In this document: positions 7,829-30,495 of the stretch, piece by piece
How the letters are laid out: every line of letters begins with the position of its first letter
Position numbering within the stretch: the first letter of the stretch is position 1
From: an uncultured archaeon
GTDB lineage: Archaea > Asgardarchaeota > Lokiarchaeia > Sigyniarchaeales > SOKP01
Reading direction: 5' to 3'
NCBI GenBank assembly: GCA_964493715.1
Contig: CAZBPC010000002.1
Location: 4,814-68,813, forward strand
Length of the DNA stretch: 64,000 nucleotides
Program-made: the position numbers and the translations under genes
Notes under the pieces: generated by a model
What the model was told of the DNA's origin: nothing
The model's database searches: none
What the model saw: only the letters and a program-made list of their open reading frames with translations

Positions 7829-9970
7829 TTAAGTATGAATAAATATTCCAGCAGATAATCCAAAATTATTGGAATCTTCTAAACATAGATTATAGATTTT
7901 CAATGGTTCACACTCGATGATTTCAATACTAATAATTTTATGATTAATCACTTTATGACTTCTGGTCAGATGCCCTGATAATCCTCTCTGTGAGCCAAAA
8001 ATTTTGTCACAAAGAGGACAAGGGAAGCAACCAACTTCTCGTACCTTATGGTCTGGGTTTTCAGGACAGTATCTTATATGAGTACTTAATCCTCCATTTC
8101 CCTTGAATAATTCATTACAAAAAGGACATGATATTAATTCATTGTGAACCTCAGCATAGTGTTTTTTTAATTCACTTGCCCCAATTATCATTTTTCCACA
8201 TTTATGACAAACCATCTTTCCATTTTTTGCCTTTTCTGATTGATTCTTCCGTCCTTTTTCACTCCTTACATATGCTTTTGAAGCTTTTTGAAATTTGTTC
8301 TGCAATTCTAACCAATGAGGTGGATGAGTGTTTTTATAATGCTCAATCATTTCCGCTCTGCCATAAACCAATTGACCACATATCTTACATATCATTTTGC
8401 CTTGTTTTCCTATTTCGGAGGACTTTTTCCGCCCCTTTTCACTTTTATTATATTTTACCAAATACTCTTTACCCCTTTTCCCAGCAGCCCTCGTCATATC
8501 ATAAAAGGCTTCTGATTTTATATAATCACTTATATTTTTCGATGCTCTTTTTGAGTGTCTTTTTTGAAATTGCGGATCTCGATGTAACTTTCTTATATTC
8601 TCTGAAGCCATTTCAGAATAGAAATCTGGATATAATTTATGTGCTCTCCCCCATCCAATTTCCCCTTTTACTGCTCTTTCACTGGCGAATTTACTATGGA
8701 TTTCAAAATGCTCTTTAAAAAATGTTCTCCTGATATTAGAGGGATTATTATTATATTTATCGAAATCGATATGATGCCTTATTTTCCCCATATCTTTTGT
8801 ATAAACATTATCCCTAATATTGTAATCATCAGCTAAATTATGTATATAATCATACGTTCCTGTTCTCGGATTATAGACAACCAGATAATCTTCTAATTTT
8901 AATCGCTTATCTTTATAAGATCTGTTAGCTACGGATATATCTTTAGCATAATAAATTTTTAAAGGCATTAATGAATCTTCATTATGCAAATGAACAACTT
9001 CAATTAATTTATTATTCCTGTTTATAAAAGCACAATTATAATCACAATATATTATGGTAGAATCATCCAAGGTAATTTTTATTAATTTTGATACATCTCT
9101 AATTCTTTTTATTTTTTCTATTTTTGAAATAACAATATTAGAGTATCGATCTAATGAAAAACAATACAATTCATTCCCTAAATTACATTCTTCCATTAAT
9201 TTTAAGAGAGTTAAATCACGTCCATCAGCTAGGTGAATTTTACTACTTCCTATTATACCCCCTTTTCTAAAATTCCTCTTTTCCTGTATATTATTAATGG
9301 TGCTGGACATTTTTGATTGAATTTTGTTAAAATCATAAGTATTTAAATCCCTAAATATCATTGCTTCAAATTTATCAATCAATCCCTTATTCCATAATTC
9401 AGAAACTAATATGAATACTTGTTTTACTAACCATCTTAGGTATATTATGAATCTCTGGCGAAAGATTGGGTACAATTTTACCTTATTGTGTATTTTTGTT
9501 AAATTAGAATAAAAATCTGCCAGGGTTATCTCATTTAATTTATCCAAAAAATCTTCTTCAACATCATTATGTAAAATAGGCATTAGAGCCCCCGATAATA
9601 AATTAAGCAATTTCACATCAAGCTCTACATTATCGAATTTCTTATCTAAAGTTTTTTCAAGATACCTAATATTGAAATAGATCATACGGGCAAGAACAAG
9701 TGTTAAATTGTCGATGAATCCAATCTGAATATCATGATCTTCGGCAATAATCTCAACAGGGTGTTCAATAGAATTGAGAGTAGTTTCGGAATTATTTTCT
9801 TCTGTATTATCCAAATTAGTGAGATTGATTTTATCCAACTTGCTTCCACAACGCTCGCAAAAATGTATCTTATCCTCATAGCCAGATATTTCTCTTATCT
9901 GATTATTTAAAATGCGCCATTCACAATTAGGGCAACTATAATAGTAAAGTCGACTATTGTCTACTACCAT
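7829..9970 (-). CDS. Zinc-ribbon / degenerate Hint (intein-like) / HNH / 4x C2H2 zinc-finger protein
   Basis: 713 aa. N-terminal CPNC...CERC ribbon. Hint block A-like SKIHLADGRDLTLL. HNH motif RHHIDFDKYNNNPSNIRR...H. Four C-X2-C-X12-H-X3-4-H/C fingers. Intein block F/G-like IYNLCLEDSNNFGLSAGIFIHT sits at the very C-terminus. Confidence 0.6.
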   Translation of the reverse strand: MVVDNSRLYYYSCPNCEWRILNNQIREISGYEDKIHFCERCGSKLDKINLTNLDNTEENNSETTLNSIEHPVEIIAEDHDIQIGFIDNLTLVLARMIYFNIRYLEKTLDKKFDNVELDVKLLNLLSGALMPILHNDVEEDFLDKLNEITLADFYSNLTKIHNKVKLYPIFRQRFIIYLRWLVKQVFILVSELWNKGLIDKFEAMIFRDLNTYDFNKIQSKMSSTINNIQEKRNFRKGGIIGSSKIHLADGRDLTLLKLMEECNLGNELYCFSLDRYSNIVISKIEKIKRIRDVSKLIKITLDDSTIIYCDYNCAFINRNNKLIEVVHLHNEDSLMPLKIYYAKDISVANRSYKDKRLKLEDYLVVYNPRTGTYDYIHNLADDYNIRDNVYTKDMGKIRHHIDFDKYNNNPSNIRRTFFKEHFEIHSKFASERAVKGEIGWGRAHKLYPDFYSEMASENIRKLHRDPQFQKRHSKRASKNISDYIKSEAFYDMTRAAGKRGKEYLVKYNKSEKGRKKSSEIGKQGKMICKICGQLVYGRAEMIEHYKNTHPPHWLELQNKFQKASKAYVRSEKGRKNQSEKAKNGKMVCHKCGKMIIGASELKKHYAEVHNELISCPFCNELFKGNGGLSTHIRYCPENPDHKVREVGCFPCPLCDKIFGSQRGLSGHLTRSHKVINHKIISIEIIECEPLKIYNLCLEDSNNFGLSAGIFIHT

Positions 9971-20026: not shown

Positions 20027-20494
20027 ATGTGTGCAGAAGAATTTACCAGCTTTTTAGAAAATGCTCGTAAATCTCCGATTGAAGAAAAGATCAATGCTTT
20101 TGGAGACATCGTTGAAAAAATGATGATCATGTTCCTAAGGATTCCAGATCTTGTTGATCAAGCCTTACTTACAATTAATCAGCAAATAACAACAATGGAA
20201 TCACGAATTAATACGATAAATACAGAAGTATCTAATATAAAGACAAAATCTACCCTTTCAACTCCAATTGTAGCCACACCTACCGCTCCGAGTAGTGCGC
20301 CTCCTCCATCAGGAGGACCACCTGGAAGACCACCTGGAGGACCACCTGGAGGACCACCTGGAGGACCACCTGGAGGACCACCGCCTCCACCTGGAGGACC
20401 ACCTGGAGCTGCTCGTCCTGCAAATCCCCAAAGTTTAAGGGGAGCAATAATGGGTGAATTAAAGCAATTATTTGCCAAACGGAACCAAGGTTAA
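20027..20494 (+). CDS. Polyproline-repeat protein (helical N-domain, (GPPG)n tract, C-terminal amphipathic helix)
   Basis: 155 aa. APPPSGGPPGRPPGGPPGGPPGGPPGGPPPPPGGPPGAARP is followed by SLRGAIMGELKQLFAKR. Confidence 0.6.
   Translation: MCAEEFTSFLENARKSPIEEKINAFGDIVEKMMIMFLRIPDLVDQALLTINQQITTMESRINTINTEVSNIKTKSTLSTPIVATPTAPSSAPPPSGGPPGRPPGGPPGGPPGGPPGGPPPPPGGPPGAARPANPQSLRGAIMGELKQLFAKRNQG
20311..20410 (+). repeat. 12-nt tandem repeat GGACCACCTGGA (about 7 units) encoding GPPG repeats
   Basis: Direct reading of ggaccacctgga iterations. It generates the spurious antisense ORF 20179-20478. Confidence 0.9.
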
Positions 20495-20852: not shown

Positions 20853-21431
20853 TTAAAACTCTAGAAAGCCTGGATCATCAAAAATGTCTTCGATTTTCTT
20901 TTCCCGCTTTACTTTACCTTCAGTTTCATCAAATAATGAATCTTCATCAGTTTTTATACCTTTTTCAAGTTCAAGAGTATCTAATTGCTGTAAAGCTCCC
21001 TTTTCAAGTTGTTTATACTCTTCGGATTTCATGCGCCAATGATTAGCATCTTCTAATTTATTACCTTCTTCCTCTTCCAAGGCGATTGCTGCTTTTGCTC
21101 GGCAAATGTCTGATAAAATAGAATATGATAATGCCAATTCACCCCATTCATTCCCTTTTTTTAATTTAAAGATTCTTTTTTCTAATCTTTGTAACTCTTG
21201 GTCTGCATAATAAACATCGATGAAATCCCCAAATGCATCAACTGGTTCAGATATGGAATTTACTATTACATCCTTATTCAATCCACAATATCCACATTTA
21301 ACCGTTGCAATAGCAGATTTTCTTATATTTTCTACTTTGACGGATTTTTCTCCGCAATTAGGACATGTAAAGATCTTTGGTACTCTCTTTACTCGTTTGT
21401 ATGATTGCTGCTTTCTTTTTCTTCTTCCCAT
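20853..21431 (-). CDS. elf1: Transcription elongation factor Elf1 homolog with long acidic coiled-coil C-terminal extension
   Basis: A basic N-terminus MGRRKRKQ, then FTCPNCGEKS...KCGYCGL...SEPVDAFGDFIDVYY, matches the Elf1 zinc-ribbon family pattern. 192 aa. Confidence 0.8.
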   Translation of the reverse strand: MGRRKRKQQSYKRVKRVPKIFTCPNCGEKSVKVENIRKSAIATVKCGYCGLNKDVIVNSISEPVDAFGDFIDVYYADQELQRLEKRIFKLKKGNEWGELALSYSILSDICRAKAAIALEEEEGNKLEDANHWRMKSEEYKQLEKGALQQLDTLELEKGIKTDEDSLFDETEGKVKREKKIEDIFDDPGFLEF

Positions 21432-21602: not shown

Positions 21603-22703
21603 ATGGAACATAAGTCTCTATCAATAGAAGAAGATGAAAATTTGTTAATCAAGATCCTTGATGATGCAGATATGCGTTACATAATACTGTATATGTATAT
21701 AATTCGAAATGATTTGCTAAAGGATCTTAGTGATTCTAAAATGATAGAATCTTATGAACGTGTTTTAATCTTGGATGAAATATTTAAAAATAATATAATT
21801 GAATTTTGGGATGAAGAATTCATTGAAATAATGATAGATCTGGGTCTATTCAAAAATATAAGAAGTTTGGGAGAGTATAACAAATTAGAAGGAGATTTTA
21901 TCCTAAAGTTAGGAGAAGAAACCATTACAATTGAAAACAACACGATTTCTGTACCCGATGATATTCTCTTCTTAATTATTAAAAAAAAATTCAAATTTTT
22001 GAACAGAAGGAATTTCAATCTCGCACTTACGAGATTAAAAGGAGTCAGTTGTGAAAAAAGCAGTATTATTCATCCTTTTATTTATGAAATTGGAGATCAC
22101 GACTTTACTCTTTCTAATGATCTTTATTATATATTGGATCAATTTGGAAATGTATATCAATCAGTTAAAATTGAAATTACAATTGAAGGATTTTACCAAA
22201 GATTTGAAGAATTACTTGAAAAAGTCAATAATTTTATTGATATATTTGATCCCGTTTTAAATTCTAAACCAGGAATGAAAAGGATTGATGAGGCTCTAGA
22301 ACAAAACAAAGAAGTCATATCATTTCTAAAAGATTCAAAAATTCAACTTTCAGATAAATTTAATTTAGAAAATGTTGAAAAGTCAGATGATACATATAAG
22401 AAGTGGTATACACAATTAACGATTTTACTAAATTCGAGGTATCAATTAAATAAGATTCAAGATAAACTGAATGAATTAAGAAGTTATTATTCAGGAAAAA
22501 AAAAAAAAAATAATTATCTTGAATTTATTGAAAAAATCTCGTTTAATGAAAATGGAATAGTTAATACTATTCAAAACACACTCATCAAATTAAGAAAAGA
22601 AATTGTTGAAATTAATACTCAAATTTCGGATTTTACAAAAAAAAAATTAAAATTATTAAATTTAGATTATGAAAGAATAATTGTTGAAAGCAAGAATGAA
22701 TAA
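21603..22703 (+). CDS. Operon gene 1: hypothetical protein with C-terminal coiled coil
   Basis: 366-aa ORF. AAGGTGAG lies upstream. Contains an A15 tract at 22496-22510. No recognisable motif. Confidence 0.5.
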   Translation: MEHKSLSIEEDENLLIKILDDADMRYIILYMYIIRNDLLKDLSDSKMIESYERVLILDEIFKNNIIEFWDEEFIEIMIDLGLFKNIRSLGEYNKLEGDFILKLGEETITIENNTISVPDDILFLIIKKKFKFLNRRNFNLALTRLKGVSCEKSSIIHPFIYEIGDHDFTLSNDLYYILDQFGNVYQSVKIEITIEGFYQRFEELLEKVNNFIDIFDPVLNSKPGMKRIDEALEQNKEVISFLKDSKIQLSDKFNLENVEKSDDTYKKWYTQLTILLNSRYQLNKIQDKLNELRSYYSGKKKKNNYLEFIEKISFNENGIVNTIQNTLIKLRKEIVEINTQISDFTKKKLKLLNLDYERIIVESKNE

Positions 22704-22705
22704 TT

Positions 22706-23665
22706 ATGATATGTCCATCATGTAATGTTGAAATGGAACCCCTTGTAGCAGGTATCTTTCAATGCCCTAATTGCAGAAAGATAGTAAAATCTAAAGAAAA
22801 AACAAGTAAAAATGTTTCAGACGAGGGTGAAGATAAAGGAGGATTTTTAGATGGAAATTATTTTCATGACCAGTTAACATTAAATAAAGAGTATGAAATT
22901 TGTGAAAAAGGTATAATTATCAATAAAACAGAAACTAGAGTACTGGCTGCTCTAATTTGCCATAGTCCATTGTTAAAGAGTGAAAGATACGTTCGACTTT
23001 CATGGTGGAAAACATATCAACACGCAGGAATGCTTAAAATTTATGAAAGTCACGTTCTAACTAACCTAATTAAAGCCTTAGAAAAATTTGATGAATCTTT
23101 TGATGATTTGTGGAACTGGAAAGGAAAATTTGATAAAAAGGATTCAAAAACTGAAGAGGATCTAGAAAAAGAGAAAAAATTAGACATCATTAAATATCGT
23201 ATATTAGAGAATCGAACATGCCCTAATTGCCAACAGAAAATGGAAAAACATAAATCTCATTATATCTGTCAACATTGTTCAGAAATTGTTATTTTAGAAG
23301 GATATAATCAACCAATTTTTAATATCGATTCTAAAGATCTTGATTTGAGATTTCATAGTAATTTTCCCATTAATTTTTATATGCCTACAAGTGGAATAAC
23401 CATCAAATGGCTTGTAGGTGAATGGAAAGCTATAGTCGTTATTTATTCAAATAATAACCCTAATAGACGCTGGCTTAGATTTTATTGGTGGACTCGGGAT
23501 TTAAGTAAATTAATAAAATATGGACAAAGGGAGATGACTGAAGGTACTCAAATGGGATGGAAAGCGCAAAAGGGAGTGTCTTCTCCAAATATATTTGATA
23601 AAAAGAATATTAGACCATTGATTAATGCTTTGGAAAAGATTTCTAATGAATTAAATTGGAACTAA
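22706..23665 (+). CDS. Operon gene 2: internally duplicated zinc-ribbon protein
   Basis: 319 aa. Two modules each contain a CxxC...CxxC ribbon (CPSC..CPNC and CPNC..CQHC), an R[YW][VL]R[LF]xWW[KT] motif and an [IL]xALEK[FI] helix. Confidence 0.55.
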   Translation: MICPSCNVEMEPLVAGIFQCPNCRKIVKSKEKTSKNVSDEGEDKGGFLDGNYFHDQLTLNKEYEICEKGIIINKTETRVLAALICHSPLLKSERYVRLSWWKTYQHAGMLKIYESHVLTNLIKALEKFDESFDDLWNWKGKFDKKDSKTEEDLEKEKKLDIIKYRILENRTCPNCQQKMEKHKSHYICQHCSEIVILEGYNQPIFNIDSKDLDLRFHSNFPINFYMPTSGITIKWLVGEWKAIVVIYSNNNPNRRWLRFYWWTRDLSKLIKYGQREMTEGTQMGWKAQKGVSSPNIFDKKNIRPLINALEKISNELNWN

Positions 23666-23682
23666 AATAGGAAAGAGAAAAA

Positions 23683-24822
23683 ATGGAAAAAAGAACGAAT
23701 TCTTCATGGCAAAACCTCTTACAATCATTTGAAAAAGGGCTTGAATTGGCAATCGATCAAGTAAAAAAACGTGATGTTGAAAGCATACCTGGAGCAAAAG
23801 ATGCATTAGTTCAACGGCTTGAAAATATGAAATTACACTTTCCTAGGAATAATGGTGATTTATTTAAGAAAGCAGTAAATGAAAAAATCCAATTTTTTTT
23901 TTTCCCTAAAACTAAAAATTTCTCTGAAGCATTTAGTAAGATTTTAAATTCCCGGACCCATGAACAAGATTTTATAATAAATGAGTTACTCAATGGTTTT
24001 GTCACCTCCAAGGCAAAAGCAATCGCCTCGGGAACGCAAGTGCCTATTATAGATAGGATGGTAGAAGCTTTTAGTAAAAGAAATGATTTCCACATAGTGG
24101 ATCATCAATTTTATGCTATGTTTGGGGATCCAAATAAACCTCGACATTATGTTAAAAACCAACTTGAAGAACTTGTCAATATGTTTGGATTAATCTCTAA
24201 GAAGCTTATCATTGAGAAAGATGTAAGACGAAGTGAGGAGAAAGTTTATACTTTTTACACCTTTCCTGATGATATTATTAAAATCCTTGAAGAAAAATAC
24301 CTAATACTTGATACTAAATTAGGATATGCTTATGTTTCTAAAAATTTTGATAGAAATGTATTTATATGTATGTTTTTAGCAAATGTAGCAATTAACAGTG
24401 ATAATATTGAAAAAATTGGAGGTTCTTATACCATAAATGGAATTTGTGCCATTTTTGCATTAATTTTATTACTGAGTTTTATGCCAAAACTATCCGTGGA
24501 CGAAACAAATCCAATTTTAAATGATCCTGGTTATAATGAAAGTAATATGAGTGTTATTCCAAAATCTTGGATGATGCGACAAGTTTTAGAGCCATTATTT
24601 GAACCACTGATTAAAATTATTGCTTATAGATTAGGGGGAGGTTTATGGCTATCAAAAGTTATTGATTCAGAAATAAATAAAAGGATTCACAATCAAATAC
24701 GTTTCTTATTAAAAGATGTCAATAAATGGGTGTTGGGTGAACTAGTACGTGTAGAGATTCCAATTTTTGTAGAAATTGCGAATATCTTTGCAGAAATTGT
24801 AGTTGGATATGATAAAGAATAA
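23683..24822 (+). CDS. Operon gene 3: hypothetical protein with central hydrophobic segment
   Basis: 379-aa ORF, 17 nt after gene 2. No recognisable motif. Confidence 0.5.
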   Translation: MEKRTNSSWQNLLQSFEKGLELAIDQVKKRDVESIPGAKDALVQRLENMKLHFPRNNGDLFKKAVNEKIQFFFFPKTKNFSEAFSKILNSRTHEQDFIINELLNGFVTSKAKAIASGTQVPIIDRMVEAFSKRNDFHIVDHQFYAMFGDPNKPRHYVKNQLEELVNMFGLISKKLIIEKDVRRSEEKVYTFYTFPDDIIKILEEKYLILDTKLGYAYVSKNFDRNVFICMFLANVAINSDNIEKIGGSYTINGICAIFALILLLSFMPKLSVDETNPILNDPGYNESNMSVIPKSWMMRQVLEPLFEPLIKIIAYRLGGGLWLSKVIDSEINKRIHNQIRFLLKDVNKWVLGELVRVEIPIFVEIANIFAEIVVGYDKE

Positions 24823-24845
24823 ATTAACTATTAAAATGAGATATC

Positions 24846-26147
24846 ATGAGTTATTCAAAAAAACCTGCAAGAAAATCTGGACGTAAGCGCGAGAAATGGA
24901 CTGATATTTTACCAAGATACCTTACATTTATTAGTCATATGAGACCAATTCTTAGAGAAACAAGAAAAATTGTTAGTGATTTGGATGCAGATTTATTGAT
25001 AGACACAGAAATCTTAGATAAAATTCGTGAAGAAGAGGAAAAAAGAAATATAAGAAAAGTAAGAGCACTTTCCGAATTCTCTGCAATGTATCGATCTAAT
25101 GTTTATGAAATAATCAAAGGCTTTATTACTAAATATAGAGGAACAATTCCAATTATTGATATTAAAGATTACATCATTGAGTTCTTACATGAATCTATCG
25201 GTGCTCTATATATTTTAAGACATATAACTAATCCAGATCAAAAAAATTTGGATGATACCTACCTTTATTCTCTTAGCAAATTTATAGAAGAGCGTTTATT
25301 TCATAAAGGTGCAAATTTAAGAATGATATATGAAAAACTTCATAAATTTTCGACGGAATACTATGAATGCCAAAGACATTTATTGCAATCACATACCTAT
25401 TACAGAGAGAAACTAGATAATTCTGATTCATTTGAAATACCAGGAATCTCTCCAAAAATGTATCAAATAATAAACAACATTACATCATTGTTTAATCTTG
25501 ATCCTAGTTTCGGGGTTTTTCCAGAACGACCTGATTATGAAATTCCAATGATTTTAAAAAGTGATATATTTTTACCTTATATCGACTCTATAGCTAATGC
25601 AGAAGAGGAATCTATTGAAAATCTAGCTGAACGAATCGGTATGCGATTAATTGATGATCTATTTTTAGCACCTAAAGAGGAATTTGTAAATATATTAGAA
25701 GAAAATAATTATTTAAGAACAAATAAACAATCCGATGGAACAATAAGATATTTACCTCAATTTAGTAATGAAACCCTTATCTTGCATTACCTTGCATTTG
25801 TTTCTCAACGGAGGGGTTTTTTATCAAAAGAATTGATTAATTGGATTTCGATGAATTTTGCATTTTTGATATATATGGGGATTTTAAAATGGAAATTATC
25901 AGATGAGAATATCTTTTATTCAATATTTAAAGATTTACAAACTAATGAAAAAATTTTACCTTATTTAATGAAGCTAATTTGTTTTCCGAATTATCTTGGA
26001 TTAGATAAAATGAAGATAAGAGACTCAGTTCAATATAGGAAGGAAATATTTAATTTTATAGGATCACAAATTGATAATTTAAAAGATCTCATTAATGAAG
26101 TTGCACTATTTTGTGAAAAATTTGATAAAGAAAGAAAGAAAAACTAA
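24846..26147 (+). CDS. Operon gene 4: hypothetical protein
   Basis: 433-aa ORF with a basic N-terminus (KKPARKSGRKREK). No recognisable motif. Confidence 0.5.
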   Translation: MSYSKKPARKSGRKREKWTDILPRYLTFISHMRPILRETRKIVSDLDADLLIDTEILDKIREEEEKRNIRKVRALSEFSAMYRSNVYEIIKGFITKYRGTIPIIDIKDYIIEFLHESIGALYILRHITNPDQKNLDDTYLYSLSKFIEERLFHKGANLRMIYEKLHKFSTEYYECQRHLLQSHTYYREKLDNSDSFEIPGISPKMYQIINNITSLFNLDPSFGVFPERPDYEIPMILKSDIFLPYIDSIANAEEESIENLAERIGMRLIDDLFLAPKEEFVNILEENNYLRTNKQSDGTIRYLPQFSNETLILHYLAFVSQRRGFLSKELINWISMNFAFLIYMGILKWKLSDENIFYSIFKDLQTNEKILPYLMKLICFPNYLGLDKMKIRDSVQYRKEIFNFIGSQIDNLKDLINEVALFCEKFDKERKKN

Positions 26148-26180
26148 ATAATAATATACCGAAAAAAGAGATGAAAGAAA

Positions 26181-27290
26181 ATTTCTAAATTAAAAGATGA
26201 TCTTGAAAAGAAAGTAATATTTACGGATGACGTTATTAGAGAAAGACTTGGGAAATATGGTGTGGTATACTTTCCGGAAGATATTAAAGAATCCGTTGAT
26301 GATATATTAGGGAATGCAAAGATAAAAGAAATACTTGAAGATTTCTTCAAAGCTTTGAACAAGTATTATGATTTTGTGGAACAGTTAAAAAATACCAATT
26401 TAGCTCCAAATCTCACAGTACTTTTATATGGTCCTCCAGGAACAGGCAAAACCTCACTAACTAGAGGATTTGCAAAAAAATATGGCGTGCCAATATGTGT
26501 AGTTGAATCAGATCGCCTTGTTTCACCGTTATTAGGAGATACAATTAAAAACATAAGAAATGTGGTGGAGTTAGCTTCAGAAATTTCTAAAGAGAGAGGT
26601 GCTTTTGTTTTATTTTTTGATGAAATTGATGCTGTTGGTTCAGAACGATCCAACACACATGAAGTAGGAGAAATCAAAAGAGCTGTCATTTCGTTTTTAC
26701 AGGTAATTGATAGAGTAAATTATGAAGGTGTACCATTAGCAATATTCGGAGCCACAAATCACCAACATCAATTAGATTCAGCAATATGGAGGCGCTTTAC
26801 ATTTCATTTTAGATTTGATTTTCCGGATTATAATTTAAGAAAGAAGATAATTGAAGCTTTTTTAGATAAAATCAAACAAGCAAAAATAGGTGTTGATAAT
26901 CAAATTTTTTCTAATTTAAATGAGGAATATAATCGTATGCAAAAAATTGAAAAAGAAATTACAAATAAAATGGGGCAGAACGTCACTGAATTTGATGATA
27001 TAATATTATGGAATGAAATTTCCAAGAAAATTAAAGGAGAGGGGTTATTAAAATTGACTCACGGATATTCTGGATCTGATATCGAAAGAGGAACTAAAGT
27101 TGCATTATTAAAAGCGATTACTATCGAACTCCTAACTTACGATCTATTCTATGATTCCTTAAAGTTAGTTGGAGGTACAGCAATTCATGTCGAACGTCAA
27201 AATACTCTAGCAACTACGAGAGGATTCATATTAAAAGATGAAAGAAATGAGAAAAAATCTAATAGGGATAATAAACCTCCTGAAATTTAA
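26181..27290 (+). CDS. Operon gene 5: classical-clade AAA+ ATPase (start probably ATT at 26181; first GTG at 26262)
   Basis: Walker A LLYGPPGTGKT, Walker B FFDEIDAV, second region of homology GATNHQHQLDSAIWRRF, and YSGSDI near the C-terminus. No MIT or other N-domain. Confidence 0.8.
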   Translation: MSKLKDDLEKKVIFTDDVIRERLGKYGVVYFPEDIKESVDDILGNAKIKEILEDFFKALNKYYDFVEQLKNTNLAPNLTVLLYGPPGTGKTSLTRGFAKKYGVPICVVESDRLVSPLLGDTIKNIRNVVELASEISKERGAFVLFFDEIDAVGSERSNTHEVGEIKRAVISFLQVIDRVNYEGVPLAIFGATNHQHQLDSAIWRRFTFHFRFDFPDYNLRKKIIEAFLDKIKQAKIGVDNQIFSNLNEEYNRMQKIEKEITNKMGQNVTEFDDIILWNEISKKIKGEGLLKLTHGYSGSDIERGTKVALLKAITIELLTYDLFYDSLKLVGGTAIHVERQNTLATTRGFILKDERNEKKSNRDNKPPEI

Positions 27291-27329: not shown

Positions 27330-28370
27330 ATGTCAAAAGATTACATTCTTGATTTAAGTAGAATAAAAAGTATCACACAACCTTTATTAACCCTCCAAAA
27401 TGGATTAGGGTCCCTTTCCCCTTTATTAGAGCAAATAGAGCAATCGAAAAATGGTTTTCATAAAATCCTCTTTTTAAATATGGATAAACAACAATTTAAT
27501 CAGATAATAACTCTAATTCAAGAATTACATAAGGAATTAACTCAAATAACACACAAAAATATCACTAATTTCCTTGCTTTTCAAGATAATTTGTTGAAAA
27601 AATATAGGGAGCAATATAGAGATCGTTTATTAAGATTGAAAATCGACCAGGAAAAAAGTAAAAACCTTGGCCTTTACTTAATTGGTCAGAAAAAAATAAG
27701 CAAGGTAGATCATCAGATTTCCTACGTTAACTCTATTATTCTGGATGACTGGTTCAATCTTTTAGATTCTTTAAATCAAAACTCTAATTTTTTGAGTTTA
27801 ATCCCTAAAATAAGAGATTATTACAAAAAAATCACTCACAATAGATTAAAAATGGAATTAGAAAAGATACCTGAGGAATTTGATGTAATGATCAAACGTG
27901 AATTCAAGAATGCTTTTAATGAAGATCCTGATTTATCTTTTGAACAATTTTTCAATGAAAATGAAAAGATGTTAACTGCTGCCGATTTAAACACAAGAAG
28001 AGAAGTGTTACAAAGAGTCAAGGAAAAAGAAGAATTAGAAAAATTAAAATTAAAGCAAGAAGAGCAAAATCAAGGTTATAAAGATTACTTAAAATTATCT
28101 GCAAAAGAATTTGAAAGGCGAAGGAGAAAAAAATCAAGAGAAAAATTAAGTGAGATTGATATTTCTTCCAACCCAAAAGAAGAAATAGAAATTAGTAAAG
28201 AAGTATCTGAGAAAATAGAACAATTTAAATCACAATTCGAAAAAAAATTTCAAGATGATTATTTAACAGGATTAGATCAAGAACTAGATCCACTAGATTT
28301 AATTAGAGAAAGGAAAAAACTGAAAGCTGAAGAGTTTAAGAAATTCAAAAAACATTTTGATCAGGAATGA
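27330..28370 (+). CDS. Operon gene 6: K/E-rich coiled-coil protein
   Basis: 346-aa ORF with a highly charged C-terminal half. No recognisable motif. Confidence 0.5.
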   Translation: MSKDYILDLSRIKSITQPLLTLQNGLGSLSPLLEQIEQSKNGFHKILFLNMDKQQFNQIITLIQELHKELTQITHKNITNFLAFQDNLLKKYREQYRDRLLRLKIDQEKSKNLGLYLIGQKKISKVDHQISYVNSIILDDWFNLLDSLNQNSNFLSLIPKIRDYYKKITHNRLKMELEKIPEEFDVMIKREFKNAFNEDPDLSFEQFFNENEKMLTAADLNTRREVLQRVKEKEELEKLKLKQEEQNQGYKDYLKLSAKEFERRRRKKSREKLSEIDISSNPKEEIEISKEVSEKIEQFKSQFEKKFQDDYLTGLDQELDPLDLIRERKKLKAEEFKKFKKHFDQE

Positions 28371-28374
28371 ATAA

Positions 28375-29991
28375 ATGACAGTTGAGGATGAACATAAACA
28401 AATAACTATAGGAACGCAGAAATATAATATCCAAGATAAGTTAACATTGATATTAGGAAAGATTAAAGACGATGACTTAATCTCATTTAAGGATGAAAAT
28501 TTAGTTGATTTAATCACAAATTTAGATCCTTTACCAGTAGAGAATATTATTAAAAATCTAAAATCAGTTTACCCCGTTATCACAAAATCGATCAATCTCT
28601 TGAAATACTTAAAAGATTATATTAAAACTATCGAATTAAATACTGAAATTATATCAGATTATAATAAATTGGCTCAGAAAATCATTCTTTCATTTCAATT
28701 CGTATTTCTGAACAATGAAAAATCTCAACTCAATGACGAATTAGAGATCGCAAAATTATCCAAGCAATCAAGTGAAATAAAAGCAATTTCAGATTTATTG
28801 GAGAAGTTAAATGAATCTTTAGCACATAATAAAACCAATTTGACTTATTTAGAGCAAGATTACCAAAAAAAGAAAAATCAAATTGATAAAATAAACCAAG
28901 AAATCCAAAATGCAAATGATATTATACAAAGCTTGACAAATAAGAAAAAATTATGTTTTAGGTATATCAATAACATCACACGTAATATGGATTTATCATC
29001 AAAATTAATAATTAATGAAGCAGAAATCAATTCAACATTAGATTTAGATCCTGATTTAACCAATGCTGAAAAAATCAGAAAACTGCAAATTAAAGCAAGA
29101 GAAATACAGCATGACATAAATCAGCATAAATTAAAAATAGACGAAACTAAACTTAAATATGACAATTTATCACCCCAATTTAAAATAATTAGTGAGGATT
29201 ATGAAAAACTTGTTCATTTGATTGAAGAAGATGAAAATAAAGTAAAAAAAAAAGAACATAAACTGAAAGATATGATATCAGGATTAGATCCTAAAATGAA
29301 TGAAAAATTACAAAAAATTGATTTTAGATCTATTCAAACCCCCTCCCAAATAGAATCAGAATTATCAAATATTGAATCGAGATTAAATACAATTTTAACA
29401 AACGAAACCTTCATCCATGATAATTCTTTTATTAAAGTCGAGGAGGTAATAAAGGAGCTTAATAAATTAATTATTTATTCAAAGAAAAATAAAAACCAAA
29501 TTACAATTTCTGATGCAAATCAAAAATTCACCGATATGTTTGAAGGCTACTTCACATTAGAGTCTATTGTTAGTAAATTAGAGGAAATACTTAATTTACT
29601 ATTAAGTGAGATAGATTTACGAGTAAACTTAGAAATATCAATTACCGAAGGATATACAAAATTATTAATTCATCCTCAATTTGCCAGAAATAAGGCACAA
29701 AATTTACAATATGATGACTTAACGACCCCCGAAAAGATATTTTTCGTAATTATAATGTACATATCAATAAAAATGCTCCAAAAATCAAAAACAATACTTT
29801 TTTCAAATGTTTTCATTCCCGAATCTTATAATAAGCGAGGATCGATATTTAGAACAATTAGAAGGTTAGTCCAAATTTTTGAGAGAAATTCTTATTTCAA
29901 TGATTATACTATCGTCTTTATAATTTCAAATTTAGAATTGAAAAAACAAATGGAAAATATAAAAATAATAAAAATTAAAGAAAGTGATTAG
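28375..29991 (+). CDS. Operon gene 7: SMC/Rad50-like coiled-coil protein with degenerate ABC-ATPase head motifs
   Basis: 538 aa. The N-terminal KLTLILGKIKDDD sits where IVGPNGSGKS would be. A coiled coil of about 350 aa follows. The C-terminal LTTPEKIFFVIIMYISI...ILFSNVFIPESYN...YTIVFIISN parallels LSGGEK...ilDEpd..LD...viTH with the catalytic residues replaced. Confidence 0.45.
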   Translation: MTVEDEHKQITIGTQKYNIQDKLTLILGKIKDDDLISFKDENLVDLITNLDPLPVENIIKNLKSVYPVITKSINLLKYLKDYIKTIELNTEIISDYNKLAQKIILSFQFVFLNNEKSQLNDELEIAKLSKQSSEIKAISDLLEKLNESLAHNKTNLTYLEQDYQKKKNQIDKINQEIQNANDIIQSLTNKKKLCFRYINNITRNMDLSSKLIINEAEINSTLDLDPDLTNAEKIRKLQIKAREIQHDINQHKLKIDETKLKYDNLSPQFKIISEDYEKLVHLIEEDENKVKKKEHKLKDMISGLDPKMNEKLQKIDFRSIQTPSQIESELSNIESRLNTILTNETFIHDNSFIKVEEVIKELNKLIIYSKKNKNQITISDANQKFTDMFEGYFTLESIVSKLEEILNLLLSEIDLRVNLEISITEGYTKLLIHPQFARNKAQNLQYDDLTTPEKIFFVIIMYISIKMLQKSKTILFSNVFIPESYNKRGSIFRTIRRLVQIFERNSYFNDYTIVFIISNLELKKQMENIKIIKIKESD

Positions 29992-29997
29992 AAATTT

Positions 29998-30495
29998 ATG
30001 GAAAATCAAGATATTGAAACTACTGTTAGAAAAATAACAAAGCTCATTTTAACAAATCCTCAAAAATTAATAAGAGAAGAAGACTTGAAAACTTTAAGTA
30101 GCGAGCAAGATTTTGAGGATCTTATAAGTAAAGTTTACATTAATTTACAAAATGTTGGATTTGAATTAATCAAAACAAAATTTTTTGACCAAAGCTTCTA
30201 TGTGTTAACCACCGATGGCATGGATGACACTATCTCACCCTCTCAATATGGAATATTAGCTTTAATAACTGCTCTTAGTAAAGAACTAGAAGAAAATTTA
30301 CCAATAAAAGATATTAAAGAATTATTTGCCGAAGTATGGGATTCAGACGTTAAATTGTTAATAGATAATGATTACTTAAGAGAAAATGAGGATTTAGCAA
30401 TTATTAGAGTTTCTCCTCTTGGAAAAGCCATACTAAAGAATATAATTCAAGATCTAAGATTAAAAAACTTGTTAAATGTTTTTGAAGAAGAATAA
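29998..30495 (+). CDS. Operon gene 8: tandem winged-helix protein, ScpB/kite-like
   Basis: 165 aa. The first WH ends in GFELIKTK...FYVLTT. The second begins ISPSQYGILALITAL...IKDIKELF..., paralleling the ScpB pattern LSxAxLEvLAiIaY..It..eIeeirG. Confidence 0.4.
   Translation: MENQDIETTVRKITKLILTNPQKLIREEDLKTLSSEQDFEDLISKVYINLQNVGFELIKTKFFDQSFYVLTTDGMDDTISPSQYGILALITALSKELEENLPIKDIKELFAEVWDSDVKLLIDNDYLRENEDLAIIRVSPLGKAILKNIIQDLRLKNLLNVFEEE

Follow-up and report, generated by a model that had tools for sequence, protein, structure and literature searches.

Can a protein with the build of an SMC or Rad50 subunit still serve a cell after its ATPase motifs are gone? The prevailing view is that SMC-type complexes function solely through head engagement driven by ATP. 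No known prokaryotes are more closely related to eukaryotes than the Asgard archaea, and the question is raised by a gene pair in the window, the whole stretch of 64,000 nucleotides from an uncultured lokiarchaeial genome that was analysed. A first-pass annotation, made from the letters of the sequence, had read gene 7 as a pseudo-ATPase SMC paralogue and gene 8 as its ScpB-like partner. The two are the last genes of an eight-gene operon:

21603..26147, forward strand: genes 1 to 4 of the operon (366, 319, 379 and 433 aa), from open reading frames and cross-locus comparison
26262..27290, forward strand: gene 5, a classical single-domain AAA+ ATPase, from Pfam, PADLOC and Cdc48/p97 matches and conserved motifs
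27330..28370, forward strand: gene 6, 346 aa, apparently helical and highly charged, with homologues and no family match
28375..29991, forward strand: gene 7, an SMC/Rad50-like protein without ATPase motifs, from a 538 aa open reading frame, homologues, an AF2 model and Foldseek
29998..30495, forward strand: gene 8, an acidic tandem winged-helix, kite-like protein, from a 165 aa open reading frame, homologues, an AF2 model and Foldseek

Both genes proved to be genuine and conserved, with homologues that have the same neighbours in other Asgard loci. Gene 7 has 76 close homologues and 127 in a library of 1.84 billion proteins; gene 8 has 623 at 62–70% identity. Gene 8 starts 6 nt after the stop of gene 7 and was its immediate downstream neighbour in each locus examined. 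The called genes of the operon are separated by 2–39 nt, excepting the uncertain start of gene 5. The gene order is identical in loci L001 and L003–L006 and, of the 76 loci that genome contigs yielded, all that are long enough to show it keep it too. Neighbouring genes have housekeeping functions (Elf1, Lsm, SAM synthetase, RNase HII and fibrillarin), and the operon seems to belong to the core genome. The literature searched gave no description of the gene 7 family or of the eight-gene operon; an ESCRT survey, an SMC-evolution preprint and a paper on divergent SMCs of the ocean were set aside as sources, as they concern other proteins.

In the AF2 model of gene 7 the head is split, the coiled coil is antiparallel and a hinge is lacking, in agreement with the head/coiled-coil/head layout that had been read from the sequence. 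The underlying alignment held 36 sequences only. The model reached a pLDDT of 85, with 81–96 in both head halves, and a pTM of 0.57. Its parts are:

28375..28572, forward strand: reduced N-terminal head half, residues 1–66, with three strands plus three short helices by DSSP on the AF2 model
28573..28986, forward strand: ascending coiled-coil arm, residues 67–204, AF2 helices 67–131 and 133–204
28945..29115, forward strand: conserved apex region, KKxCFxxINxITRxM and LTNAEKIRxLQxKAxExQ on either side of a poorly modelled 25-residue turn
29062..29613, forward strand: descending coiled-coil arm with several breaks, residues 230–413, AF2 helices 230–304, 306–313, 323–342, 355–371 and 382–413
29614..29991, forward strand: C-terminal head half, residues 414–538, AF2 strand-strand-helix-strand-helix-strand-strand, pLDDT 85–96

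The modelled coiled coil is intramolecular and antiparallel, with ~135 residues per arm and a pLDDT mostly of 85–95. The N-terminal head half is far smaller than in real SMCs; the corresponding half of SMC and Rad50 has ~150–170 residues. Because this half is so small, the head may be unable to form dimers as SMC heads do. Its shortness does not stem from a mis-called start, since orthologues conserve the N-terminus. Near-invariant residues at the apex are K191, K192, F195, I198, N199, I201, T202, I234, Q238, A241 and Q245, and the pLDDT of the turn falls below 50 at residues 207–213. An apical dimerisation element, either a hinge domain or a CxxC zinc hook, is absent from the model and the sequence; the whole protein has one cysteine.

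A Foldseek search of the PDB with this model returned 51 matches at E ≤ 1e-3. SMC-superfamily chains, with a probability of 1.00, made up nearly the whole set. The listed non-SMC exceptions were a dynein motor domain and one integrative model. Best matches were Rad50 (7zr1_C, 6e-8), MukB (7nyw), Pyrococcus Smc (5xei), LmuB (9hqu), Smc5/6 and JetC. TM-scores to PDB chains were low, at 0.15–0.23. Head-only SMC constructs were also matched (5h68_A, by the C-terminal head half, over 129 columns with an rmsd of 3.9, and 4i99_B), with rmsd values of 3.9–5.7 Å over 129–145 columns; therefore the coiled coil alone cannot account for the matches. In the model, the two termini of gene 7 together make up a reduced head of the ABC type.

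The ATPase motifs of SMC heads can be followed through this fold by their degenerate equivalents:

28438..28476, forward strand: Walker A equivalent KLTLILGKIKDDD, strand and first glycine (G28) retained, no GK[ST]
29719..29736, forward strand: signature equivalent LTTPEK, with TTPEK invariant among the 36 aligned sequences
29794..29808, forward strand: Walker B equivalent strand ILFSN, with S477/N478 at the D/E positions of RecN
29830..29856, forward strand: NKRGSIFRT loop and helix at the position of the D-loop, with N486, K487, G489, S490 and R493 invariant
29917..29931, forward strand: H-loop equivalent strand FIISN, asparagine in place of histidine

All strings quoted by the first-pass annotation lie where it had placed them: KLTLILGKIKDDD at residues 22–34, LTTPEK at 449–454, ILFSN at 474–478 and FIISN at 515–519, together with the strings in gene 8. 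The claim that the motifs are recognisably placed is supported by the AF2 model, in which they fall on the motif elements of an SMC head: strand 23–28 with a short loop and helix, helix 451–468, strand 473–477 and strand 512–518. The distance from the signature-equivalent leucine to S477/N478 is 28 residues, the same as to the D/E pair of Escherichia coli RecN (28) and shorter than in SbcC (32).

The same motifs had been called chemically dead, and this holds for the family. Every member examined lacks the lysine of Walker A, the acids of Walker B, the Ser-Gly-Gly of the signature and the histidine of the H-loop, and none of the four ATPase motifs is present in the alignment of 36 homologues. 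In place of GxxxxGK[ST], gene 7 has LILGKIKDDD. According to the AF2 model and motif comparison, its P-loop is cut to ~3 residues, about five too short to wrap a phosphate. Leucine and Glu-Lys alone are retained when LTTPEK is compared with LSGG[EQ]. S477 is nearly invariant and N478 invariant; the Walker B pattern hhhhDE is missing and with it the acidic pair for Mg2+ and water activation. GxxxxGK[ST] occurred in 0 of 62 orthologues from fetched loci. Among 126 full-length proteins (at least 450 aa) of two protein searches, two carried it and neither is a true family member: both are weak matches that align with the profile in its coiled-coil region only, and one of the two, an SMC-type protein of 942 aa, has GPNGAGKS at residue 34. 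A search for orthologues that retain the Walker motifs found none among the family members covered. A distant branch of the family also has no ATPase motifs and reads L[KT]RxEK at the signature position.

The loss of chemistry coincides with strong conservation. Conservation in the family peaks at residues 445–500, where the major-residue frequency is 0.71 vs 0.42–0.59 elsewhere. TTPEK, N478, N486, K487, G489, S490 and R493 are invariant in the 36 sequences at ~35% identity, and G28 is nearly so. The former active-site surface (TTPEK helix, FSN strand and NKxGSxxRT loop) ranks first in conservation and the coiled-coil tip second. That the active-site region is the best conserved argues, at the level of sequence, that it is reused for another role and is not decaying. 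Chance matches in K/I/N-rich sequence, named at the outset as the result that would undo the reading, do not explain the placement of the elements, the RecN spacing, the invariant residues and the Foldseek probability of 1.00.

Sequence profiles did not recover the relationship. Pfam, NCBIfam and PADLOC gave no family assignment for genes 6, 7 or 8. Among curated SMC models (Pfam SMC_N and AAA_23; TIGR02168/02169), a match was confined to the coiled-coil part, at 20 bits vs a cut-off of 567, and Pfam gave nothing. The PDB profile search with gene 7 was negative, and a profile of its C-terminal head alone retrieved spurious TALE-repeat matches only. Family profiles aligned by hhalign with E. 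coli MukB, SbcC, RecN, MukE and MukF were not significant, and global-mode alignments were meaningless. Of the term pseudo-ATPase SMC paralogue, the SMC-type head and coiled coil and the family-wide loss of motifs stand; 'paralogue' found no support from sequence profiles and rests on fold, motif register and context. Profile surveys of SMC, kleisin and kite genes overlook members such as genes 7 and 8.

Gene 8 is acidic (pI 4.5) and was modelled by AF2 with moderate confidence (pLDDT 75.5) as two winged helices:

29998..30213, forward strand: first winged helix, residues 1–72, DSSP helices 2–19, 27–34 and 39–52, strands 24–26, 55–62 and 65–72
30238..30453, forward strand: second winged helix, residues 81–152, DSSP helices 81–97, 103–109, 111–123 and 140–152, strands 127–130 and 135–138

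Kites accounted for 11 of the 16 best Foldseek matches. The top three were Nse1/MAGE-G1 (9e-5 to 1e-3), and ScpB (4e-3) and MukE were also matched. TFIIIC (2e-3) and ESCRT-II Vps22 (3cuq_A, 5e-3) were interleaved with the kites. The earlier description of a protein that mirrors ScpB 6 nt downstream is correct for the gap, the tandem winged helices and the kites as best structural matches; the nearest relatives in structure are Nse1/MAGE-G1 and not ScpB. Pfam models of ScpB, MukE, Nse1 and MAGE gave no such match at E ≤ 1 to 28 members of the gene 8 family, and the PDB profile search and hhalign against MukE were negative as well. The rates at which genes 7 and 8 evolve show no covariation (r = −0.02). 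The assignment of gene 8 as kite-like is based on its predicted fold and on gene context.

A kleisin would be expected to bridge such a pair by analogy, and gene 6, always directly upstream of gene 7, had been named as a positional candidate without an ScpA motif. The absence of the motif was confirmed: Pfam, including a member-by-member scan, NCBIfam and PDB profiles gave no kleisin signature in gene 6. Comparison of genes 1, 3, 4 and 6 with MukF by hhalign was negative, so that a kleisin was found nowhere in the operon by Pfam, NCBIfam, PDB profiles or this alignment. Gene 6 has 185 homologues, most of exactly 346 aa. Its evolutionary rate, alone among the genes, covaries with that of gene 7 (r = 0.58), a value that saturation of two fast-evolving genes could also give. 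Gene 6 is a possible partner of gene 7.

Gene 5, two genes upstream of gene 7, is the sole recognisable NTPase of the operon and is always present with an intact active site. It matched Pfam AAA (7.8e-27), PADLOC IetA (1.2e-58), NCBIfam IteA (8.9e-52) and Cdc48/p97 (1e-34). Conserved motifs are GPPGTGKT (Walker A), FFDEID (Walker B) and LDSAIWRRF, and the second region of homology is present. The LDSAIWRRF segment resembles the Vps4/katanin type. The pore loop SPLLGD has no aromatic residue, the C-terminal PPEI is invariant, and a MIT, Cdc48-N or OB domain was not recognised. Five of the other operon proteins had no known-family match in Pfam, NCBIfam, PADLOC or PDB profiles; gene 2 carries two zinc ribbons. 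PDB profile searches with genes 1, 3, 4 and 6 gave nothing useful, hhalign of the eight families against each other detected no paralogy, and Pfam and NCBIfam recognised no DNA-binding domain anywhere in the operon. Genes 3 and 4 are ~80% identical across loci where gene 7 is 36% identical.

The gene 7 family is probably a nucleotide-independent scaffold of the SMC/Rad50 superfamily that works with the kite-like gene 8 and with an AAA+ ATPase acting in trans. Nucleotide binding would have been lost in the ancestor of the entire family. Fixed protein–protein contacts, from head to head or from head to partner, may be the present role of the conserved surface of the head and of the tip of the coiled coil. 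Gene 7 would then be an arm or scaffold independent of nucleotides, and it would carry gene 8, probably via another operon protein, with gene 6 as the foremost candidate for that link. Any assembly, opening or remodelling that needs energy could be performed in trans by gene 5. The first-pass annotation had offered a static scaffold or energy outsourced to the AAA+ protein; what favours these two ideas is the constant presence of gene 5, its active site intact, in the operon. The step to a substrate is the weakest: the analogy with SMC-kleisin-kite complexes would make DNA or chromatin the likeliest one. A bolder version, in which the operon encodes a previously undescribed Asgard-specific machine, an SMC-kite-type DNA-holding ring without its own ATPase whose loading, opening or recycling falls to a dedicated AAA+ remodeller acting in trans, is unlikely.

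The choice of substrate also separates the scaffold from its strongest competitor, which accepts the folds and dispenses with DNA. Gene 7 would be a tether or cytoskeletal element, gene 8 an adaptor of the ESCRT-II/cullin type, and the AAA+ protein would disassemble them like Vps4 or Cdc48. This is rather unlikely, yet several observations fit: Vps22 among the matches of the acidic gene 8, the Vps4/katanin-like segment of gene 5, and an operon in which no DNA-binding domain was recognised. The archaeal SMC-like proteins Sph3 and Arcadin-4 are reported to have cell-shape or cytoskeletal roles (PMC10869688). Kites outnumber and outrank all other classes in the gene 8 matches, however, and the position of gene 8 directly behind an SMC-type gene in all loci is the classic context of a kite. 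ESCRT-III, MIT and membrane-binding domains were not found in the operon by Pfam and NCBIfam.

Peak conservation at the former active site, with N486, K487, G489, S490, R493 and the nearly invariant G28, could also mean that gene 7 still binds a nucleotide or phosphate ligand in a non-canonical way, by GK at residues 28–29 or the NKRGS loop, as a divergent enzyme or switch. We give this little credence. The distant branch shares the same operon context but does not retain K29 or NKRGS, and has QG[DSK] at the first site and a TKQTF-like sequence at the second. The shortened P-loop and the missing acidic pair also speak against a ligand site.

An operon for defence against viruses or plasmids, akin to Lamassu/Wadjet with their SMC-like sensor or to IetAS with its AAA+ protein IetA, is very improbable and was rejected. 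IetA is the best family match of gene 5, and LmuB, of similar size, and JetC are among the structural matches of gene 7, but the IteA score is 176 bits against a family cut-off of 510. Pfam, NCBIfam and PADLOC recognised no IetS protease, nuclease or other effector, and gene 7 has no ATPase motifs. Gene order in the operon is the same in all loci, its surroundings are housekeeping genes, and genes 3–5 are 74–80% identical where gene 7 has 36%, a vertical behaviour of core genes that differs from patchy defence islands. Hardly any weight was left for a generic coiled-coil protein whose termini were modelled as ABC-like from a shallow alignment: the 36 sequences, the pTM, the low TM-scores and the negative profiles would suit such an artefact, but it was rejected on the confident head halves, the head-only matches (differing arm angles would lower TM-scores), the agreement with RecN in motif order, carrier elements and spacing, and a conserved L-x-x-x-E-K at a helix start that resembles LSGGEK-type signatures.

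If the bolder version of the nucleotide-independent scaffold is true, it would be a third way to power an SMC-type complex, and the gene 8 fold, nearest to Nse1/Nse3, might bear on the origin of eukaryotic SMC accessory subunits. Head fold, coiled coil and kite-like partner are kept under purifying selection without a nucleotide site, which points to an undescribed structural use of the SMC architecture. The operon offers a well-defined candidate complex to experimenters with cultured Lokiarchaeia.

Among known systems, Rad50/SbcC resembles gene 7 in its split ABC-type head, its intramolecular antiparallel coiled coil without a globular hinge and the best structural match. Unlike gene 7, Rad50 retains all its motifs (Walker A/B, signature and H-loop), carries a CxxC zinc hook at the apex of far longer arms, and works with the nuclease Mre11. 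RecN (553 aa) and LmuB (chain of 631 aa) are close to gene 7 (538 aa) in size and in the order head, short coiled coil, head. RecN shares the spacing from signature to Walker B, and LmuB 9hqu_A aligns with gene 7 over 539 columns. RecN serves DNA repair in bacteria, and LmuB, together with a nuclease effector, defends against phages. In contrast to gene 7, both are active ATPases and have no kite, and the hhalign comparison with RecN was not significant.

Gene 5 corresponds to IetA and classical-clade AAA+ proteins (Cdc48, Vps4/CdvC and PAN) in its single classical AAA domain, intact Walker A/B and second region of homology; its sub-cut-off score and an operon without an IetS protease separate it from IetAS. 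ESCRT-II Vps22/Vps25 share the tandem winged helices of gene 8 and rank below the kites, in an operon without a recognisable ESCRT-III or Vps4-type MIT partner. A published survey of archaeal ESCRT systems leaves SMC and Rad50 unmentioned (PMC10936438). Lamassu/Wadjet systems have an active SMC-like ATPase, an effector nuclease and a patchy distribution, in contrast to an operon without ATPase motifs in gene 7 or a recognised nuclease.

Asgard genomes carry two or three canonical SMC sets that are recognisable by sequence (preprint 10.1101/2024.01.07.573240). SMC-kleisin-kite complexes (Smc-ScpAB, MukBEF, JetABC and Smc5/6-Nse1/3/4) use ATP-driven head engagement and a kleisin that bridges neck and cap. 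Compared with them, genes 7 and 8 have lost the ATP site, reduced the N-terminal head half and have no hinge, kleisin found or profile match. What they share with these complexes is the arrangement itself: a gene of SMC fold that adjoins a small acidic gene of tandem winged helices.

Genes 7 and 8 are the last two of an eight-gene run on the plus strand, and gene 8 begins 6 nt past the end of gene 7. Intervals of 2-39 nt separate the called genes, except for gene 5 with its uncertain start.

Genes of the operon (window position, strand, product, mean identity to the window)
Gene 1: 21603-22703, plus, 366 aa; 62%
Gene 2: 22706-23665, plus, 319 aa, duplicated zinc-ribbon protein; 69%
Gene 3: 23683-24822, plus, 379 aa; 80%
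Gene 4: 24846-26147, plus, 433 aa; 79%
Gene 5: 26262-27290, plus, 342 aa as called, AAA+ ATPase; 74%
Gene 6: 27330-28370, plus, 346 aa, candidate bridging subunit; 42%
Gene 7: 28375-29991, plus, 538 aa, predicted SMC/Rad50 fold; 36%
Gene 8: 29998-30495, plus, 165 aa, kite-like protein; 64%

The same gene order occurs in a Hodarchaeota-labelled genome and two metagenome contigs, in the distant loci L005 and L006, and in every sufficiently long locus of the 76 from one-genome-per-species contigs. Genes 7 and 8 are constantly paired, within a constant eight-gene context that includes one intact AAA+ ATPase. Named homologues of genes 7 and 8 come solely from metagenome-assembled Asgard archaeal genomes. 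By their submitters' labels, the genomes with the operon belong to Promethearchaeota/Lokiarchaeia, Hod-, Hermod-, Thor- and Odinarchaeota; their synteny is near-perfect, which suggests a fairly close relationship among most of them. The complete operon, at 58-79% identity to the window, also lies on a 62-kb contig (DATKTW010000134.1) that was submitted as 'Candidatus Nanopelagicaceae bacterium' (Actinomycetota) and is most likely mis-binned. Genes 3 and 4 (23683-26147) are about 80% identical across loci where gene 7 is 36% identical, and about 50% in the most distant loci.

The window has a G+C content of about 29% and holds the archaeal housekeeping genes Elf1, an Lsm protein, archaeal SAM synthetase, RNase HII, aRF1, Elp3 and GatE. 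The Elf1-type zinc-ribbon protein (20853-21431, minus strand, 192 aa) is extended at its C-terminus by a long acidic coiled coil, and in all loci examined its gene runs divergently to the operon. A 155-aa protein (20027-20494, plus strand) has a helical N-terminal part followed by a long Pro/Gly repeat (GGPPGGPPGG...), of which the antisense ORF 20179-20478 is a by-product. Genes of similar size lie at the far upstream edge of two orthologous loci, L001 (156 aa) and L003 (147 aa), with a gene for 549-551 aa between them and the operon. A 713-aa protein (7829-9970, minus strand) matches Pfam zf-C2H2 (1.6e-7); zinc fingers of this C2H2 type are far more characteristic of eukaryotes.

Gene 7 had no match in Pfam. 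The NCBIfam SMC models reached only its coiled coil (20 bits; cut-off 567), and the PADLOC LmuB models stayed at noise level. An AlphaFold2 model was calculated from an alignment of 36 homologues with about 35% identity and had a mean pLDDT of 85. The N-terminus forms strands 9-12, 15-18 and 23-28 and three short helices. Long helices ascend at 67-204 and return at 230-413, with a poorly ordered apex of 25 residues between them. The C-terminal domain follows in the order strand, strand, helix, strand, helix, strand, strand. Foldseek comparison with the PDB gave 51 matches at E <= 1e-3, nearly all to SMC superfamily heads: Rad50 (7zr1, 6e-8), MukB, Pyrococcus Smc, Lamassu LmuB, Smc5/6, Wadjet JetC and cohesin SMC1/SMC3. 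TM-scores were low (0.15-0.23), as expected when long arms point at differing angles. Head-only constructs were also matched (5h68_A, 129 columns, rmsd 3.9 Å; 4i99_B, 145 columns, 5.7 Å), therefore the coiled coil alone does not explain the result. The model thus assigns gene 7 an SMC/Rad50 fold and agrees with the head/coiled-coil/head layout without a hinge that the first-pass annotation had read from the sequence.

The motif strings quoted in that annotation were all found in place. In the model they sit on the elements that bear the real motifs in SMC heads.

Motif equivalents in gene 7
Walker A: third strand LTLILG, leading through KIK into a helix; of the P-loop, the first Gly is kept (G28, at least 90% conserved)
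Signature motif: LTTPEK at the start of helix 451-468; Leu and Glu-Lys are kept
Walker B: ILFSN, strand 473-477; the acidic pair is absent
H-loop: FIISN at the end of strand 512-518; His is replaced by Asn

The P-loop equivalent is about five residues too short and lacks GK[ST]. The signature Leu is 28 residues away from S477/N478, the same distance as to the Walker B D/E in Escherichia coli RecN; it is 32 in SbcC. Searched by profile, 1.84 billion representative proteins yielded 127 gene 7 matches, 67 of them below 1e-30. The search also revealed a more remote branch whose 525-575-aa proteins share the layout and have L[KT]RxEK at the signature position and, again, no Walker A motif; two of these proteins are encoded within the same eight-gene operon (L005, L006). 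GxxxxGK[ST] was absent from the gene 7 orthologues of all 62 fetched loci. Among 126 full-length proteins (>=450 aa) from two protein searches, two carried the pattern: a 942-aa SMC-type protein (GPNGAGKS at residue 34) and a 526-aa protein (at residue 101), both weak matches whose alignment to the profile was confined to its coiled-coil part. The search for orthologues with intact Walker motifs was therefore negative, in line with the earlier view that the nucleotide-binding motifs are dead. On these sequences, the nucleotide site has been lost across the whole gene 7 family and throughout its history.

The best-conserved part of gene 7 is residues 445-500 with the signature, Walker B and D-loop equivalents (mean major-residue frequency 0.71; arms 0.42-0.51, N-terminal head half 0.49, apex region 0.56). 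Invariant in the 36-sequence alignment are T450, T451, P452, E453, K454, I474, N478, N486, K487, G489, S490 and R493. In active SMC proteins, the signature motif and the D-loop of the ABC-type heads line the head-to-head interface. We infer that the former engagement surface was retained as a fixed protein contact. A second conserved patch, KKxCFxxINxITRxM and LTNAEKIRxLQxKAxExQ, flanks the apex, which is the place of dimerisation in Rad50, MukB and Smc. In the alignment, conservation is selective and favours the apex and the former active-site surface. In Lamassu, the effector is reportedly held at the apex end of the arms, as the title of the LmuB entry 9hqu ("nuclease sequestration state") suggests.

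Gene 8 is far better conserved than gene 7: its 623 homologues share 62-70% identity, compared to about 35% for gene 7. The AlphaFold2 model (pLDDT 75.5) has winged helices at residues 1-72 and 81-152. The best Foldseek matches in the PDB were the human NSE1/MAGE-G1 pair (9e-5, 1e-4, 1e-3), followed by ScpB of four organisms (4e-3 to 2e-2), a chain of the yeast Smc5/6 complex and MukE. Kites made up 11 of the 16 best matches, interleaved with TFIIIC (2e-3) and ESCRT-II Vps22 (5e-3). The protein is acidic (pI 4.5), as are ScpB and MukE. Its strings show the faint resemblance to ScpB seen in the first-pass annotation and fit the ScpB consensus, a lead and not a test, and sequence models of ScpB, MukE, Nse1 and MAGE matched none of 28 family members. 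Of the ScpB-like kite proposed in that annotation, the kite was supported, with tandem winged helices and kites as top matches; the nearest kites by score were NSE1/MAGE-G1 and not ScpB. By predicted structure and context, and not by sequence, gene 8 fits the definition of a kite.

No kleisin was identified, and gene 6 remains a candidate by position only: the lack of an ScpA motif noted earlier extends to the kleisin models, none of which matched, and Pfam and NCBIfam gave no match either. Most homologues among the matches listed have exactly 346 aa. Conservation is strong in the C-terminal third, which is rich in charged residues (EFERRRRKKSREKL ... DPLDLIRERKK); designed coiled coils were the sole PDB-sequence matches of the N-terminus. 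Once the shared tree signal is removed, rates covary in no pair of the operon but genes 6 and 7 (r = 0.58; genes 7 and 8, r = -0.02). Genes 6 and 7 also evolve fastest, therefore saturation could yield the same covariation. The L005 and L006 genes in the gene 6 place encode only 285 and 263 aa, compared to 346 aa, and run into the beginning of the gene 7 orthologue. BLAST no longer picks up genes 6 and 7 in these two loci, with genes 2-5 still 42-53% identical.

Gene 5 encodes a single-domain classical AAA+ ATPase with conserved GPPGTGKT, FFDEID and LDSAIWRRF. Its unusual, non-aromatic pore loop SPLLGD (LVSPLLGDT) and invariant C-terminal PPEI are conserved in 61 orthologues, distant loci included. 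Classical AAA+ unfoldases have an aromatic residue at this pore-loop position. The PPEI tail may be a docking motif. IetA models were the best family matches, far below the curated cut-off, and the operon has no IetS protease. The frame is open for 29 codons (window 26175-26261) ahead of the first canonical start, GTG at 26262, and encodes ...VIFTDDVIRERLGKYG, which matches orthologue N-termini (MVYSEAEIRERMSKYG in L005). This stretch has no ATG, GTG or TTG, so ATA or ATT may serve as a non-canonical start codon, or this lineage may have lost the start. Orthologues mostly have 352-373 aa, compared to 342 aa in the window. Gene 2 is an internal duplication: a CxxC...CxxC zinc ribbon with a Trp-rich domain of about 130 residues behind it occurs twice, and the two halves align with E = 3e-4. 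Genes 1, 3 and 4 had no match in Pfam, NCBIfam or PDB sequences, and no paralogy was found among the eight families. The operon's functional core is probably formed by genes 3 and 4.

Gene 7 may serve as a nucleotide-independent arm or scaffold, with the old engagement surface and the tip as fixed contacts. Gene 8 would join as a kite-like subunit, probably via a bridging protein such as gene 6, and energy-dependent steps would be performed in trans by the AAA+ protein of gene 5. Only the analogy to SMC-kleisin-kite complexes suggests that it acts on DNA. We consider this whole picture reasonably likely. Our confidence is much higher for the predicted structural identity of genes 7 and 8 and much lower for DNA as the substrate. 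The main rival keeps the folds and gives the complex a non-DNA scaffold or cytoskeletal role, for which archaeal SMC-like proteins provide precedents (PMC10869688); we regard it as rather unlikely. A defence island is argued against, because the synteny amid housekeeping genes is conserved and genes 3-5 evolve slowly.

Asgard genomes have two or three canonical SMC-kleisin-kite sets according to a survey with sequence profiles (10.1101/2024.01.07.573240), an approach that the gene 7/8 pair would escape; our literature search found no paper on this pair. The eight-gene operon as a whole may be something newer, a claim beyond the present evidence. Gene 7, with none of the catalytic features of the SMC superfamily and no match to a curated sequence model, is classified as an SMC-superfamily pseudo-ATPase with a kite-like partner, gene 8, inside an uncharacterised conserved Asgard operon. 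By Foldseek score it is nearest to Rad50; in its architecture, it comes closest to RecN and LmuB, SMC relatives with short arms and no hinge.
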